IMG/VR virus record: IMGVR_UViG_3300037484_000292
Coordinates: 1-32,174 of that record
DNA from: a virus
Lineage: Duplodnaviria > Caudoviricetes
Direction: 5' to 3' (one strand)
DNA: 32,174 nucleotides
Part shown: positions 3,799-32,174 of the stretch, one piece after another
Layout of the letters: every line of letters begins with the position of its first letter
Numbering within the stretch: position 1 is the first letter of the stretch
The notes under the pieces: generated by a model
Told to the model about the DNA's origin: nothing
Database searches by the model: none
Seen by the model: only the letters and a program-made list of their open reading frames with translations
Translations under genes and position numbers: made by a program

Positions 3799-4910
3799 AA
3801 ATAGCCTTCGTAAATTTTCATTTCCAGAATCCCGTCAATTCGCACTTGAGACAGTATCCAGTTGTTTGTCGCCGTTACCTCACAGCATAGTTCGTAGTCG
3901 TTCCTGATAATAAGATAGCGTATAATTATCATGTCGTAGGCTGCAACACCGAGCTTGGAAGCTATGGAATTTTGCTGCATGCCCGCGAATAAACCGGATT
4001 TGCTGTCATCAAATAGTAAAATAAAATCAAATAAACCTGCGTCAAAAACAGGCGTTTTGAATTTAATATTTGCATAATTTTCCACGCCTACAGCCCACAT
4101 AAGAGAACCCTCACTTCCTAAAAATGAGAATTTTGGCTTATTGACGTTACTAATGGTAGGCTTCGTTGTCTGAGACAGCAATGTTATAATCTTGCCGTTT
4201 ATTTTATAAGCTAATTTATTCTGCAAACAAATCTCATCCAGAATCATTGTAAACGAAGACGGCTGAAATAATCTATCACCAACAGGCAATAAGGTCGCGT
4301 TAGCCATTTTGGAAGAGTCCACAGCATATCCCGCTTTGACCGCAACTTCCGAAAGTTGATCTACAATCGTTCTGGTCTTTATAAGATGAAAAGCAAGATC
4401 AGTTCGGAATAACGTATCATCTATCGATGCGCCTTTAATAAATAAAGTAGCAGAAACACCCAGTGAATCAGGCTGAAGGATGGATGAATACGCAATAAAA
4501 GAACGTGATATATTTGAAGTCGAACTTATTTTTTCCACAACGACAGCATACATAATATTTACTGCTGGATTGGCAATCTTTTCAATAGCTGAAGCCATTG
4601 CATCCGGAGACAGTGCAGACGACACGAATCCGACAGAGACTTGAGAAATTAAATCAGACGGAGGCATTTTTATTGCTATGCCGATAGTCATTTTTAATGA
4701 CGATCCCAGCGGGATACCATTATGCGCAATTTCATAATTATACTTGCAGGAATAAACGTCCGGAGGCAATAACATAGTTATCCCTGAAGGCAGGTATTTA
4801 TAGACAAGGCTTGACAACTCTGCCGTTGTCCATTGGTCTGAACTGTCTGTCATATCGGCTACAATGACGGGATTACATACCGGATTACCCGGCGGATAGA
4901 AAATAATCAT
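3795..4910 (-). CDS. Baseplate hub protein (putative)
   Basis: 371 aa; position before the spike; LDEICLQNKLAYKINGKIITL resembles hub/gpD-type segments. Confidence 0.5.
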   Translation of the reverse strand: MIIFYPPGNPVCNPVIVADMTDSSDQWTTAELSSLVYKYLPSGITMLLPPDVYSCKYNYEIAHNGIPLGSSLKMTIGIAIKMPPSDLISQVSVGFVSSALSPDAMASAIEKIANPAVNIMYAVVVEKISSTSNISRSFIAYSSILQPDSLGVSATLFIKGASIDDTLFRTDLAFHLIKTRTIVDQLSEVAVKAGYAVDSSKMANATLLPVGDRLFQPSSFTMILDEICLQNKLAYKINGKIITLLSQTTKPTISNVNKPKFSFLGSEGSLMWAVGVENYANIKFKTPVFDAGLFDFILLFDDSKSGLFAGMQQNSIASKLGVAAYDMIIIRYLIIRNDYELCCEVTATNNWILSQVRIDGILEMKIYEGYL

Positions 4911-7992: not shown

Positions 7993-9156
7993 TTAACTAA
8001 AATTGAAAACAATTGTAAAGTAATGAATTGCCTTGTACGGCATGATCTGCGCTACTATCGCGCCGGCCGGGATAACTCCTTCCGATTGCCAGTTAGGATT
8101 AAGTACATCAATCTGCGATTTTGTTTTTGTTATTAAAGCATAATCCGCGGTGTTATCTTCCAGTGATAGGATTGCCCCCGCTTTCCATAACGCGTCTAGC
8201 GCTGATCTTATCAACGCCGCCACTTCAAGCACTCCGGGGTAATCGGCGTCAATCCCTGTGCGTCCTGCCGCAATGAGAGAATTGCGGGAAGATACAACGC
8301 AATAATCGTTGATGTAGTCAATTGCTATCTGTGTTTCAAGCTGCATTGATGCCGGAGGATTTACGGTTGAATTCATGAATGTATCATAGATAAACAATGC
8401 CGCGCCCTGATCTTTCGCGCCGTTATATTGTGCCAGAGATTGCGAGGCTATATAAGCCCGTGTAGTCGCTGAATAAGTATCCCCGTCCACTTCCTCAAAA
8501 TCATGTGCGTCCGACAGAGAGCCTATGCTGCGCGCTATCATGCCGCCGTACAGTACGAACACCAGAGCAGACAGTAATGGATTATGATATACGTAAGTAT
8601 ATTCGTCTATTTCATCGTAAGCGTTTGTTACGACAGTAATAGTCCGGCTCTGTGTTGTAAGCGATCCGCCAAGCAAAAGAGCAGCCGGCAGAGTGTCCAG
8701 GTCTTCCATCGTGAATGAATGAAAAAATATTTTTGCTTTCGCGTCCGTACACCAGTTAGAAGCAACTACGCAATCCGCAAGAAATGTACTTTCATCGTCA
8801 AGGCCGTTTGTCTGTGATCCTACATTTAGAAATGACCATGAACGCGGACTGTAATTCGCGTCATCAAGCATATTACTTGTCAAGGCCGATCCGCCGGTGC
8901 TGAGAATGTAAACTTTATCCGGTTTGACCGATCCCGCAAAAACAGTATTTAAAAATTTAGCAGTCGCGTATGCTGTGGGATTGTCATCGATAAAATCTTC
9001 AACCATTGCCTCGGTTACTTCGATGAGTCCGGAATTAGCGTCAGGGGTATAACCCGTAATAACTTCTCTTGTCGCAAATACGATCCTTCGCGCCAGACTT
9101 CCAAGAGTTCCGGTAGTTGCCTGACTAAGTAGTGTGATAAATGATGATGCTGACAT
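7993..9156 (-). CDS. Tail sheath protein (DUF3383-like, putative)
   Basis: 387 aa; C-terminal IRSALDALWKAGAI...YKAIHYFTIVFNF resembles DUF3383-type sheath C-termini; synteny. Confidence 0.7.
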   Translation of the reverse strand: MSASSFITLLSQATTGTLGSLARRIVFATREVITGYTPDANSGLIEVTEAMVEDFIDDNPTAYATAKFLNTVFAGSVKPDKVYILSTGGSALTSNMLDDANYSPRSWSFLNVGSQTNGLDDESTFLADCVVASNWCTDAKAKIFFHSFTMEDLDTLPAALLLGGSLTTQSRTITVVTNAYDEIDEYTYVYHNPLLSALVFVLYGGMIARSIGSLSDAHDFEEVDGDTYSATTRAYIASQSLAQYNGAKDQGAALFIYDTFMNSTVNPPASMQLETQIAIDYINDYCVVSSRNSLIAAGRTGIDADYPGVLEVAALIRSALDALWKAGAILSLEDNTADYALITKTKSQIDVLNPNWQSEGVIPAGAIVAQIMPYKAIHYFTIVFNFS

Positions 9157-23936: not shown

Positions 23937-24103
23937 TTACTCACCTCTAAAATAGTTTTATTTAATCCAATCATAATTATTTTAATGTCCCTTATTGTAT
24001 CCTCTGATTTCTGTAGTCTTTCTTCTAACCAATCTATATATTCGTTAGTACATCCTAATGTCTGCCCTGTTTCTTTTTCAAATTGTTCTTCGTATTTACT
24101 CAT
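23933..24103 (-). CDS. 56-aa hypothetical protein
   Basis: MSKYEEQFEKETGQTLGCTNEYIDWLEERLQ...; RBS GAGGTGA; ATGA coupling. Confidence 0.55.
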   Translation of the reverse strand: MSKYEEQFEKETGQTLGCTNEYIDWLEERLQKSEDTIRDIKIIMIGLNKTILEVSK

Positions 24104-24112
24104 ACATCACCT

Positions 24113-24336
24113 CTATATATTTAATTATTTAAAATAAATCCATTTCGCCATTTTTAATTTTATCAATAGCTTTATTATATCCAGCCGTATAAGCTATCTC
24201 CCATATCATTTTATCCGTAATATCTTTGAGTAATCTTTTTTCTCCGGTTATAGGGTTAGGATTATTACGATAAATTTCATAATATTCTTCTAATGTTTCA
24301 ATCATAATTCATTCTCCTATATATTTAATTATTTAA
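24113..24336. repeat. Exact 20-bp direct repeat CTATATATTTAATTATTTAA (24113-24132 and 24317-24336)
   Basis: Read directly from the sequence. Confidence 0.8.
24129..24305 (-). CDS. 58-aa hypothetical protein flanked by direct repeats
   Basis: MIETLEEYYEIYRNNPNPITGEKRLLKDITDKMIWEIAYTAGYNKAIDKIKNGEMDLF*; RBS AGGAG. Confidence 0.55.
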   Translation of the reverse strand: MIETLEEYYEIYRNNPNPITGEKRLLKDITDKMIWEIAYTAGYNKAIDKIKNGEMDLF

Positions 24337-25792: not shown

Positions 25793-27037
25793 TTAAACAA
25801 ATTTAGTATATTTTTTATAAAAATTTACGTTCACAATCCCACAAGCACCATTACGATTTTTAGCGACTATCAATTCGGTATCTGTTATTTCTTCGTTGTC
25901 CCGATAAATAAATATTACTTTATTCGCGTCCTGTTCTATGTCGCCGCTTTCCCGAAGGTCGGCAAGTACCGGACGTTTATTTTGTCTGTTCTCAACTGAT
26001 CTGCTTAGTTGTGATAAAAGTAATACCGGGATTTTATATTCTTTCGCAAAGTTTTTTAATCCCCTTGTGATGTCCCCGACCTGAATATACCTTTGAGCTT
26101 TCCTGTCTGTTGAATTTATAAGCCCCAAATAATCGACAACGATAATTGCCGGCTTCTCATAATCCATTTGTCGCTTGCTGGCATTGACTATATTTTCAAC
26201 TTTGAGTCCAGACTGTTCGTTAAAATGTAAATTCAGTTTCTTTATTTTTTGATATGCCTGTTGAACAACTTCAAGTTCGTATTTATCTAATATTCCGAGT
26301 CTTAACCGATAAAAATCAATATTAGTTTCTGCCGATATAAGCCTGAGCCCTAATTCCTTAACTGTCATTTCGAGCGAGAAAAATAATACTTTTCTTGTTG
26401 CCGATATATTCCGCGCGATATTGAGCGCAAGCGCGGACTTCCCTATCCCAGGGCGCGCCGCAAGTATAACGAGTTCTCCCTCAAAAAATCCATAAATTAA
26501 ATGATCGAGTTCCTTAAATCCGGTCTTAATATATTCGTTATCCTTGAGTTGTAAATTAGCGATATTGTTTCCGAGTATAGCCTCAACCGGATAAATTGAC
26601 CTGCCGTGCTCACGATCTATGTCCTTAAGTTTATGTTCTAAGTCCTCAATAATTTCGTTAGCCGATAATTCTTTGTCTGCCGACTTGTCTTTAAGTTCTA
26701 AAGCTACACCGTTAAGTTTTGCTTTCTGACTGGCTTCGATAAGTCGCTTTATATAAAATCCTATATTGGCAGATGTCGGCGAAGTTCTAAATATTTCTAC
26801 TAATTCAGAATCGCCGCCTATTTTTTCAAAATGTCCTTTTTGAATTAGTTTGTCTTTAAGTGATATAATATCTATATTCGATTTCTGGTCATAGAGTTCT
26901 TTGAGTGATAGAAATATAATTTTATTCTTTTCATTCTGGAAGTCTTCCGGTTCCGTCTGGTCAATAAGTTCAAGTAATGCGTTTTGACTTAATACGGCTG
27001 ATCCTATACAGGCTTTTTCAATATCATAATTATTCAT
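25793..27037 (-). CDS. dnaB: Replicative DNA helicase DnaB
   Basis: AARPGIGKS, FSLEM, VDYLGL, LSQLSR, DLRESGDIEQDA, KNRNG. Confidence 0.95.
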   Translation of the reverse strand: MNNYDIEKACIGSAVLSQNALLELIDQTEPEDFQNEKNKIIFLSLKELYDQKSNIDIISLKDKLIQKGHFEKIGGDSELVEIFRTSPTSANIGFYIKRLIEASQKAKLNGVALELKDKSADKELSANEIIEDLEHKLKDIDREHGRSIYPVEAILGNNIANLQLKDNEYIKTGFKELDHLIYGFFEGELVILAARPGIGKSALALNIARNISATRKVLFFSLEMTVKELGLRLISAETNIDFYRLRLGILDKYELEVVQQAYQKIKKLNLHFNEQSGLKVENIVNASKRQMDYEKPAIIVVDYLGLINSTDRKAQRYIQVGDITRGLKNFAKEYKIPVLLLSQLSRSVENRQNKRPVLADLRESGDIEQDANKVIFIYRDNEEITDTELIVAKNRNGACGIVNVNFYKKYTKFV

Positions 27038-27653
27038 TGACTACCTTTCCCTCTTTGTATTTTTTGTAAGGATAAGAATCATTATTTTGTTTATTATTGT
27101 GTATCCAAGTTCTAATGGTAGCCTGCCAGCTTTTCATTGGAGATTTATTTTTACCAACTACCCAGCCAATACTTTCATTTTTATCAAAAAAATATTTACC
27201 AGAGAATAATTTACAGTTTAAGTCATTAAGATATGATTGTATTTCTTCCGGTGTAGGTTTAATGAATTTCTTTGTATTATTAATTGTATTATTATATGTA
27301 ATATTCTTTTCAGCATTTCGTTGAGGGGTATTCATCTTTTCGTTTATCCCCCCTTCAGCATTTCGTTGAGGATCAATTAATTCATTAAGCCATATTTCTC
27401 TTTGATAACTTTCAAAATCAATTTTAACATTAATATATTGATATAATTTTAATTGATTTATCCATTTGCTTATTGTATTTTTATGAACATCATATAACTC
27501 CGCAAAATATTCATTTTTAGCCCAGCAATAACCTTTTTCATTGCAAAGTGCTGTAATTTCTCCGTAAAGAAGTCTAGCATTAGGGCATAAATTTTTATCA
27601 TAGCGAACATTTGCCGGTATAATAGCATAATAAGATTTTTTTTCGTCTGACAT
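27030..27653 (-). CDS. Phage replication initiator (N-terminal HTH)
   Basis: YYAIIPANVRYDKNL...ARLLYGEITALCNEKGYCWAKNEYFAELY; C-terminal FIKPTPEEI...MKSWQATIRTW; adjacent to dnaB. Confidence 0.85.
   Translation of the reverse strand: MSDEKKSYYAIIPANVRYDKNLCPNARLLYGEITALCNEKGYCWAKNEYFAELYDVHKNTISKWINQLKLYQYINVKIDFESYQREIWLNELIDPQRNAEGGINEKMNTPQRNAEKNITYNNTINNTKKFIKPTPEEIQSYLNDLNCKLFSGKYFFDKNESIGWVVGKNKSPMKSWQATIRTWIHNNKQNNDSYPYKKYKEGKVVNE
27271..27371. repeat. Putative replication origin: 18-bp direct repeats plus AT-rich tract inside the initiator gene
   Basis: TTCAGCATTTCGTTGAGG at 27309-27326 and 27354-27371; AT-rich stretch 27271-27308. Confidence 0.55.
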
Positions 27654-27662
27654 CCCTCCCCC

Positions 27663-27836
27663 TTAACTGCAAATTATCGTAATAACTTTGTCGCAACAGT
27701 AAAAAAATATTAACCAGAAAATAAGACTAACTGTCATCCAACGGAATACGTGTTTTGTAGACTGTTTTGAATGAAGCGCGTCTTTGTTAATAGCATCTAA
27801 AATCTTCTGATCTTTAATTGGTATCTTACAGGTCAT
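27663..27836 (-). CDS. 57-aa putative membrane protein
   Basis: Hand translation MTCKIPIKDQKILDAINKDALHSKQSTKHVFRWMTVSLIFWLIFFYCCDKVITIICS*; RBS GAGGT. Confidence 0.55.
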   Translation of the reverse strand: MTCKIPIKDQKILDAINKDALHSKQSTKHVFRWMTVSLIFWLIFFYCCDKVITIICS

Positions 27837-27900
27837 ACTCTACCTCGCTTTTTTATATGTTTGAAAACTGACAATTTTAATAAGACATAATTCAGATTTG

Positions 27901-28336
27901 AAGCCTTTAAAAATCCCCCGAAGGGGCGTCGGCTTAGAAACTTACCAAACATATCCGACCACATATTGCTATGATGTTTATAAGCAAACCTTTCGGTTGC
28001 AGTTAATCGAGGTCATCGAAGGTTGCCCCACTCGCTCGATCTCAGCCATGTCTGGCATGACCACTCAGTTTTTAAAGAGGTGTCTTCTTTTCCTCAGGTT
28101 TTCTTTGCTTGCATTTATCCGGCAGGTTTCCTCGCCATCGAATCAACGCTGCAAGTCGCGCGCCTTGCTTACGACACTTGCTTCGGACGCCCCCACATCT
28201 TAAGATGCTGTCTCGGCAATTCGCGCCGGTGTGATTGACTCACTGTGAAACTTTCCCTTAGACCCATCCGGCGCACTATCCATTATCTCAATCGCATTGT
28301 GTTGGTCTGCCTCCTTAACCTGGATTTAAAATACCC
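27901..28336 (-). ncRNA. Candidate large structured non-coding RNA (~430 nt), family unassigned
   Basis: No minus-strand ORF in the track; at least ten helices visible by eye, with GNRA/UUCG tetraloops on the minus strand; TATAAT at 28348-28343 just upstream. Confidence 0.7.
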
Positions 28337-28364
28337 AAAAAAATTATATTTGTAATCAATTTGC

Positions 28365-28535
28365 TTAATTGTAAAATTTATCTAAACGGTCATTTATAAA
28401 ATCTTTTCCAGCTTCAAATCCTTCTTCATATGCTTTTTTAAGAGCTTCATCTATAAAATAGGCCAATGATTTTGTATTTTCTTTCGCAAAATCCTGTTTA
28501 TAAAAATCAATTACAGTCCCTTGCGCTGTTTCCAT
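28365..28535 (-). CDS. 56-aa hypothetical protein
   Basis: METAQGTVIDFYKQDFAKENTKSLAYFIDEALKKAYEEGFEAGKDFINDRLDKFYN*; RBS AAGGAGA. Confidence 0.6.
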   Translation of the reverse strand: METAQGTVIDFYKQDFAKENTKSLAYFIDEALKKAYEEGFEAGKDFINDRLDKFYN

Positions 28536-28536
28536 A

Positions 28537-28719
28537 TTATTTCTCCTTTGGTACTGTTAAATCGTGTCCCTGCCCTGTTTTGTGATAATAGACGGTACAA
28601 TCTTTGTATTCACGTATGCCGTCATAGGTTTTATGACAAATTAGGCAGTTAGAAATACGACATAATCCCGTCGTATTCTGCACCATTTTATTTGTGCGGC
28701 GTTCTGCTGTGTTTGGCAT
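28537..28719 (-). CDS. Small Cys/His-containing hypothetical protein
   Basis: C-terminal part of ORF 28537-28791 (CRISNCLICH); start uncertain. Confidence 0.4.
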   Translation of the reverse strand: MPNTAERRTNKMVQNTTGLCRISNCLICHKTYDGIREYKDCTVYYHKTGQGHDLTVPKEK

Positions 28720-28726
28720 AACAATC

Positions 28727-29206
28727 TCACTTAATCTGTAAATTCCCTTGTTCAACCAGTTTTGCACCTTCAATCGCAATACCGGATTCAATTGCTTTTT
28801 TGATTGCTACCTTATCCGGTGTCACAACTTCTTTAACATTGCAATAAGTCATGTCTGCGAATCCTGGTATAATTTCAACGTGCTTTGATTTCCGTATCGA
28901 CAATTTGAATGTACCGGCCTCGATATTGCCTTCGTGCTGAATATAGGGTGTGAGATATTTCTTAATTGATTCTATCCTGTTGTCAGCTTTCTTTCGCATA
29001 TTATAAATGCGTTCTTCTTCCTGTTTGCATATATCAATACCGAGTTCAAGATTACGTACGTATTGACATAAATTTTCTATTTGCACCAAAGATTGAGTTT
29101 GTGCCTCGATAAGTTGCTGGAATTTATCTTCCGGTATCTCACCTTCGTTATGTTCTGCGATATATTCAATTTGCTTTTCGAGTTCGATCACGTTATACAG
29201 ATTCAT
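28727..29206 (-). CDS. Siphovirus Gp157-family protein
   Basis: MNLYN start, helical body, FKLSIRKS, PDKVAIKKAIESGIAIEGAKLVEQGNLQIK C-terminus. Confidence 0.85.
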   Translation of the reverse strand: MNLYNVIELEKQIEYIAEHNEGEIPEDKFQQLIEAQTQSLVQIENLCQYVRNLELGIDICKQEEERIYNMRKKADNRIESIKKYLTPYIQHEGNIEAGTFKLSIRKSKHVEIIPGFADMTYCNVKEVVTPDKVAIKKAIESGIAIEGAKLVEQGNLQIK

Positions 29207-31992: not shown

Positions 31993-32174
31993 TTACCGGA
32001 TTATTTTATTTTTAAATTCATCCGGTAGTGTAATACCCTTGAGATCACAGCCTCTAAGATCGAGATAGCCGCCCATGGATGTCGGTAGTGTAATACCCTT
32101 GAGATCACAGTCTCTAAGATAGAGAGAGCCGCCCATGGATGTCGGTAGTGTAATACCCTTGAGATCACAGTCTC
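31993..32174 (-). CDS. C-terminus of a 20-aa leucine-rich-repeat protein (partial)
   Basis: ...DCDLKGITLPTSMGGSLYLRDCDLKGITLPTSMGGYLDLRGCDLKGITLPDEFKNKIIR*. Confidence 0.75.
   Translation of the reverse strand, partial: DCDLKGITLPTSMGGSLYLRDCDLKGITLPTSMGGYLDLRGCDLKGITLPDEFKNKIIR
32023..32174. repeat. 60-bp tandem repeat (at least 2.5 units, truncated by the window)
   Basis: Units start at 32023, 32083 and 32143 with CGGTAGTGTAATACCCTTGAGATCACAG. Confidence 0.95.

Follow-up and report, generated by a model that had tools for sequence, protein, structure and literature searches.

The largest gene-free interval of a tailed phage probably encodes an RNA element with some function, whether an RNA acting in trans or a leader acting in cis. 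Our leading reading, which we hold tentatively, is that of a mobile, modular noncoding RNA (ncRNA) of a probably spirochaete-infecting phage, which would be organized like GOLLD and ROOL, large phage RNAs recently shown to build RNA-only cages, without being a member of either family. The evidence supports a 56-nt core rather than one ornate fold of 430 nt. In the leading reading, an inserted cassette consisting of the interval and a 56-aa gene would encode a folded ncRNA of ~440 nt, the working core of which would be a 56-nt 3′ module with a predicted pseudoknot. The RNA would be made from the early operon or from a TATAAT site, and its 3′ end would be set just behind the module, by a hairpin–U5 signal in the window and by RNase P–type cleavage at a tRNA-like sequence in G001, the other phage that carries the module. 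The knot may protect the 3′ end or dock a partner, the 5′ domains would be exchangeable, and the RNA would act in trans as a stable and abundant molecule, by analogy with GOLLD and ROOL.

A gene-free interval in the early region

The window, which is the whole stretch of DNA that was analyzed, corresponds to the whole linear virus record IMGVR_UViG_3300037484_000292 (32,174 bases). The minus strand carries all the genes, in the order baseplate, head, terminase, and then the early region. The host is possibly a spirochaete, since a 387-aa protein (7993–9156) has a relative with 95% identity (MBN2401992.1) that is annotated in a Spirochaetes metagenome-assembled genome (MAG), which is a single label, other relatives of this protein being labeled differently. 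At the end of the record, 31993–32174 (minus strand) holds an open reading frame (ORF) fragment that consists of leucine-rich-like repeats of 20 residues in tandem. The features of the early region that concern us are the following:

25793–27037, minus strand: DnaB, early region (protein family match)
27030–27653, minus strand: replication initiator, early region (protein family match)
27663–27836, minus strand: downstream flanking ORF, 57 aa, the first gene ahead of the replication initiator and DnaB
27837–28364, minus strand: gene-free interval, 528 nt, flanked by two small early-region ORFs
27900–28340, minus strand: candidate ncRNA, ~440 nt, 48% GC, with ends placed by composition, the TATAAT hexamer, and the terminal hairpin
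27909–27926, minus strand: UUCG-loop GC hairpin of 4 bp followed by A and five U, a weak terminator-like 3′ end
27928–27983, minus strand: conserved 56-nt module, 55/56 identical to G001:1845–1900
27979–27974 with 27952–27947, minus strand: predicted pseudoknot helix 1, 6 pairs, within the module
27973–27962, minus strand: predicted pseudoknot helix 2, a GCAA-capped hairpin of 4 pairs, within the module
27959–27955 with 27932–27928, minus strand: predicted pseudoknot helix 3, 5 pairs, within the module
27984–28000, minus strand: GAAA-capped hairpin with a 22-nt look-alike in G001 locus B
27984–28340, minus strand: 5′ and middle region, a chain of local hairpins for which no homologue was found
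28186–28194, minus strand: 9-bp long-range helix, 5′ arm (inverted repeat I13), paired with 27930–27922, probability 0.88
28343–28348, minus strand: TATAAT hexamer lacking a −35 match, a putative promoter by sequence
28365–28535, minus strand: 56-aa ORF traveling with the element, with a gene-like codon score and a 33% identical relative in G001
28537–28719, minus strand: upstream flanking ORF, 60 aa, with a G001 relative at 37395–37604
28727–29206, minus strand: Gp157/Gam-like gene, early region (protein family match)

A sequence-only reading of this DNA had described the interval as the sole long one without a minus-strand gene and as visibly richer in GC, and both observations hold. Its 528 nt make it the largest minus-strand gene-free gap left by the 57 ORFs listed, the runner-up being 111 nt, and the GC content of 27900–28340 is 48.1%, compared to 35.0% in the remaining early region, where the best other 441-nt window reaches 41.7%. 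The other gaps, when pooled, have 31% GC, while 45 to 53% is reached by late genes in 400-nt windows. A replication origin at the interval is unlikely since iteron-like 18-bp repeats sit inside the initiator gene; there, 27309–27371 contains two exact copies with a degenerate one between them, which are likely to be the origin iterons.

A module shared with a second phage

A public contig of run X1 matches just 27928–27983, at 55 of 56 positions, with flanks unlike those of the window. A 17-base pattern taken from that contig retrieved one IMG/VR record, G001, which is identical to the contig over 721 bases and is a fragment of another phage, larger than the window (43 kb, 31% GC). By sequence comparison, G001 is the one homologue found, and the 5′ 350 nt of the element are without a detectable one. 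The limits of the module, although set by homology alone, match the predicted pseudoknot: the final base is the end of the last pseudoknot strand, and the start lies 4 nt before the first. This match supports the ncRNA reading, as does the fact that the lone substitution (27960) is unpaired. The 15 Watson–Crick pairs of the pseudoknot are reached by 66 of 2,000 dinucleotide shuffles (P = 0.033) and in 30 of 574 genome windows. On the other side, the reading is weakened because there is a sole homologue and none of the 15 pairs varies, i.e., two near-identical sequences provide no covariation.

Homologous coding pieces of the window and G001 are 74% identical and the cassette proteins 33%, against 98% for the module, which again supports an ncRNA; at 74% background identity, 55 matches out of 56 have a probability of ~1e-6. 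This near-identity may nevertheless stem from recent exchange because the two phages share a second island, 34 bp of noncoding DNA at 24097–24130 that is 97% identical in G001 between unrelated flanks, and because both are present in run X1. The 34-bp island belongs to a short gene-boundary repeat; an 18-bp AT-rich gene-boundary motif has two copies in the window (24113–24130 and 24317–24334) and one in G001 (3800–3833), in each case after a stop codon and ahead of a ribosome-binding site, before unrelated genes.

The organization around the G001 module (locus A) offers further points of comparison. A 60-aa relative of the 28365–28535 ORF comes first, then a gene-free stretch and the module, which only four bases separate from a tRNA-like sequence; the small genes that follow the module are unrelated. 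Since the gene-free stretch has 44% GC vs. ~30% on both sides, noncoding DNA lies ~13 GC points above the flanking genes in both phages, which supports the ncRNA reading. Further support comes from tetraloop hairpins, confined to the minus strand in locus A (P = 0.034) as they are in the window (P = 0.022), and from the candidate 3′-end signal that directly follows the module in both phages. In G001, this candidate is the tRNA-like sequence (G001:1765–1840; L083 1419–1494, minus strand), which scores 29.3 bits for a cut-off of 29 and is missed by ARAGORN. Its acceptor and T arms are intact, it has no normal D or anticodon arm and no encoded CCA, and its D, anticodon, and variable regions are predicted to form a single long irregular hairpin. 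Rfam detected nothing else in G001. The claim that the element has no tRNA partner is right for the window, where there is none; its sole homologue abuts the tRNA-like sequence. The 5′ regions of the window and of locus A share neither sequence (104 of 300 shuffles score as high) nor pairing profile (27 of 30), which weakens the ncRNA reading.

The small protein encoded at 28365–28535 has its 60-aa G001 relative (33% identity) upstream of the module, and a profile of the two proteins found only themselves among five candidates. The G001 relatives of the flanking ORFs 28537–28719 and 27663–27836 are found elsewhere, at 37395–37604 and 37606–37764, one base apart, and the comparison of flanking ORFs shows that the window departs from G001 at a start codon. 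The adjacency of these genes in G001 supports the ncRNA reading; it also ties the two flanks to each other, which is evidence against a chimera formed at the shared 56 bases. By this comparison, the simplest reading is that a small gene plus RNA of ~700 bases was inserted at a gene boundary, which is what it looks like, while a cassette lost from G001 could account for the same arrangement. The upstream flanking ORF also contains, in its 5′ part (28630–28700, minus strand), a strong hairpin with a folding z of −2.92 that is matched by 0 of 200 shuffles; this region is absent from the G001 relative.

In G001, a second region (locus B, G001:27273–27705; L086 7273–7705) is a candidate large RNA by itself. 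It is a gene-free stretch of 433 nt with 47% GC, bordered by tRNA-Met on one side and the gene for an HNH endonuclease on the other, which holds two perfect 10-bp helices and has no Rfam match. A 22-nt GAAA hairpin of locus B recurs at 28001–27980 of the window with one C–G to U–A swap (2 of 300 shuffles do as well), and its end motifs loosely resemble the downstream motifs of the window (P = 0.04 to 0.05). A single-sequence covariance model of the window finds locus B with an E value of 0.25, outranked by a chance match, and for the whole pairing profile 24 of 30 shuffles score as high. These likenesses are suggestive of homology with the window RNA, but do not establish it. Before the tRNA-Met, 730 nt of G001 (26465–27198; L086 6465–7198) have few ORFs, several GC-rich hairpin clusters, and no Rfam match.

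A more far-reaching version, doubtful when all its parts are taken jointly, is that there exists a new modular phage RNA family, of which the window RNA is a recombinant. Unrelated 5′ domains would share a single pseudoknotted 3′ core that can be exchanged, the cassette and its small protein would move between phages of one host, and the 3′ end would be produced either by a terminator or by RNase P at a degenerate tRNA retained solely to signal processing. The window RNA would combine two G001 RNAs, with a junction at four shared bases (27983–27980). Another module junction, or an artifact, is possibly seen in a short, low-depth contig of run X2, which is identical to the window over 28219–28360 and diverges in its last 9 bases, just after the GCGCCGG/CCGGCGC domain. 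Between X2 and the window, there are 0 changes in 142 positions of the RNA region vs. 6 in 256 positions of the ORFs, a difference that is not significant (P = 0.09).

Searches for further homologues retrieved G001 alone. By BLAST, the window RNA gave only 24- to 38-nt chance pieces in GenBank phages and nothing in plasmids, and both G001 regions gave nothing in phages. Collection scans require exact words, which divergent members would escape. Beyond G001, none of the 10 other matches in viral collections extends past the pattern, nor does any of the 34 in metagenomes (4 of which are in repeat arrays), and none of the 12 in genomes shares the downstream motifs (11 are in long open frames). 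Two further pattern scans gave no match, another returned G001 only, one of the nine matches of a scan of this kind is G001 locus B, and nine motif loci from pattern scanning have no Rfam match. No further RNA homologue was present at 80 of 117 Gp157 loci, at 80 of at least 586 DnaB loci, or in five unrelated genomes, and a neighbor search by the downstream flanking ORF gave one locus, G001 again.

Folding, ends, and alternative readings

Each helix listed in the sequence-only reading is present at its minus-strand coordinates. The further claim that the interval is dense in helices was not confirmed beyond chance level: the global folding z of the minus strand is −0.43, 34 of 100 shuffles folding equally well (the plus strand has +1.09), and 120-nt minus-strand windows across 27870–28350 range from −0.65 to +0.91. 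The module is no different (z = −0.19), and a nested alternative fold exists for it. These chance-level values, of the kind expected for shuffled sequence, weaken the ncRNA reading. Folding z is, however, a low-power test for such RNAs because a true ROOL, that of plasmid pMP118, scores just −1.39 globally (−0.77 locally) with the same folding script and 40 shuffles; under these settings, the window scores −0.36 globally and +0.17 locally. In the full-length ensemble, some of the listed helices are likely (GAUCGAG, 0.95; GCAUC, 0.87; GCGCCGG, 0.77; GCAAGU, 0.66; and GUGA, 0.64), whereas others are not (CAUA, 0.25; GGUCAUG, 0.11; GAGG, 0.06; and AAACAU, 0.0). The pseudoknot helices are not favored in this nested ensemble, which weakens the ncRNA reading.

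The assertion that GNRA and UUCG loops are specific to the minus strand fared better. GNRA/UNCG hairpins with at least four pairs number three on the minus strand, compared to 0.62 in 2,000 shuffles (P = 0.022), and zero on the plus strand, which is a mild enrichment. When overlapping windows of 441 nt are taken along the minus strand of the genome, 9 of 289 have an equal count, some of which overlap the candidate region. Since the P values are modest (0.02 to 0.03) and several tests were run, the reading is correspondingly weakened. At the 5′ end, there is indeed a perfect TATAAT at 28348–28343 and no good −35, as had been reported. Scanning detected neither a sigma-70–type promoter that includes a −35 box nor a terminator at the proposed ends, which also counts against the ncRNA reading; the hairpin at 27909–27926 has 4 pairs, under the 5-pair threshold of the terminator scanner. 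What survives of the proposed ornate ~430-nt RNA is that a structured ncRNA outside any Rfam family is the best reading; homology backs only its 3′ 56 nt (perhaps 78).

Since the region lies just upstream of the replication genes, it is conceivable, if rather unlikely, that it is a cis-acting leader, in which an attenuator or antisense switch in the early transcript would control read-through into the initiator and DnaB. The control exerted by P4 CI and P1 C4 is a precedent for such a mechanism. As with P4 CI and P1/P7 C4, a structured RNA in a phage early transcript would precede replication functions in the window, would contain complementary sites, and may be linked to RNase P; it differs in that the element is much longer, has no Rfam match, and has complementary sites that are not kept in G001. 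The 9-bp long-range helix, which excludes both the terminator-like hairpin and the last pseudoknot helix, fits a switch. The motif AAGCAA, which was chosen post hoc, has four copies, where 0.5 are expected, upstream of the complementary sequence in the GAAA hairpin, and a perfect 9-nt complement of the module (I9) lies just before the next ribosome-binding site. However, the long-range helix is absent in G001, and locus A has none of the switch features; there, the module is followed by a tRNA-like sequence and by small genes that are unrelated. In addition, the terminator stem has just 4 pairs, and there is no match to any Rfam cis-regulatory or antisense family.

It is unlikely that there is no functional RNA at all, which would make the interval decayed or foreign DNA, the 56-bp island a DNA site (operator or promoter) or a scar left when phages sharing a host recently recombined, and the hairpins the product of chance. 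The chance-level folding z would be expected in such a case, as would the absence of any further homologue from the collections scanned, and the 34-bp island is a second near-identical noncoding stretch common to the same two phages. Left without explanation, however, would be the presence in both phages of GC-rich noncoding loci with strand-biased tetraloops, the coincidence of the island with a closed set of helices, and its tRNA-like neighbor. Finally, that the island is coding, within a plus-strand protein (27898–28203, 101 aa, or 28023–28238, 71 aa), is very improbable: although the island is open in the same frame in G001 (L083 1418–1621) and its substitution is synonymous, both ORFs start with TTG and run against the direction of every other gene, neither has a PHROG or Pfam match, the ORFs of the two phages share only the 18 island codons, and a check for coding signal gave codon scores (−0.15 and −0.22) that lie among those of 19 shadow ORFs (−0.05 to −0.32) and below those of eight small genes (−0.05 to +0.24).

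If the leading reading of a cassette-borne ncRNA is true, this would be a compact, uncatalogued, and mobile RNA with a core 98% kept between otherwise different phages, and would offer a small testable unit, of 56 to 80 nt, with which to study the role of these RNAs. If the island is a recombination scar, it has little significance.

Comparison with known RNA families

To our knowledge, few classes of large phage RNAs are known, and the function of GOLLD and ROOL is still open. The interval is uncatalogued in Rfam, where covariance-model searches gave no match at gathering score for the whole window and none at E values up to 10 for 27700–28500. A relationship to GOLLD or ROOL, of which a compact relative had been suggested, was not detectable, and neither model matches the window phage or G001: GOLLD (RF02032, a 416-position model) gave no match to either record at E values up to 10, in a search run without a positive control, and ROOL (RF03087) gave none in a search that recovered its positive control pMP118 (130 bits, E = 1.1e-29). 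There is likewise no Rfam match to OLE, raiA, HEARO, RNase P RNA, tmRNA, group I/II intron domains, small ribozymes, or C4, and ARAGORN found no tmRNA in the window.

A retron, group II intron, or OMEGA/HEARO element was rejected because no gene is interrupted and there is no reverse transcriptase, IscB, or TnpB nearby; that such partners are missing had been pointed out before, and the neighbors are indeed small ORFs, the Gp157/Gam-like gene, the initiator, and DnaB. Partial motif likenesses to the group I intron, group II intron, RNase P, tmRNA, pistol, twister, and type I-F CRISPR repeat were also rejected, being incomplete or out of order and with no Rfam match. Our literature searches showed no description of the element. 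The module motif does not occur in the searchable supplements of PMC12286853 and PMC10690425, and other large lists of candidate RNAs could hold it.

According to PMC12286853, GOLLD combines a conserved 3′ region with a variable 5′ one and is located near tRNAs, and ROOL is a phage/prophage RNA with pseudoknots that is frequently near tRNAs. PMC6582537 describes mycobacterial GOLLD clusters with tRNA or pseudo-tRNA neighbors plus an HNH gene. GOLLD has an elaborate structure supported by covariation and forms a multimeric nanocage. The 3′ part shared by the window and G001 is 56 nt and not ~400, and the window has no tRNA. The likenesses to GOLLD are that the window element is phage-borne, gene-free, and hundreds of nucleotides long, and that the window and locus A together display a conserved 3′ and a variable 5′ part, although over 56 nt and in two sequences only. 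In G001, moreover, the module lies ahead of a tRNA-like sequence, and locus B, between tRNA-Met and an HNH gene, recalls the order of tRNA, large RNA, and HNH gene in the mycobacterial clusters (PMC6582537). When compared to ROOL, the window RNA is shorter and has no match to RF03087, but it resembles ROOL as a phage RNA with a predicted pseudoknot and a similarly unremarkable folding z.
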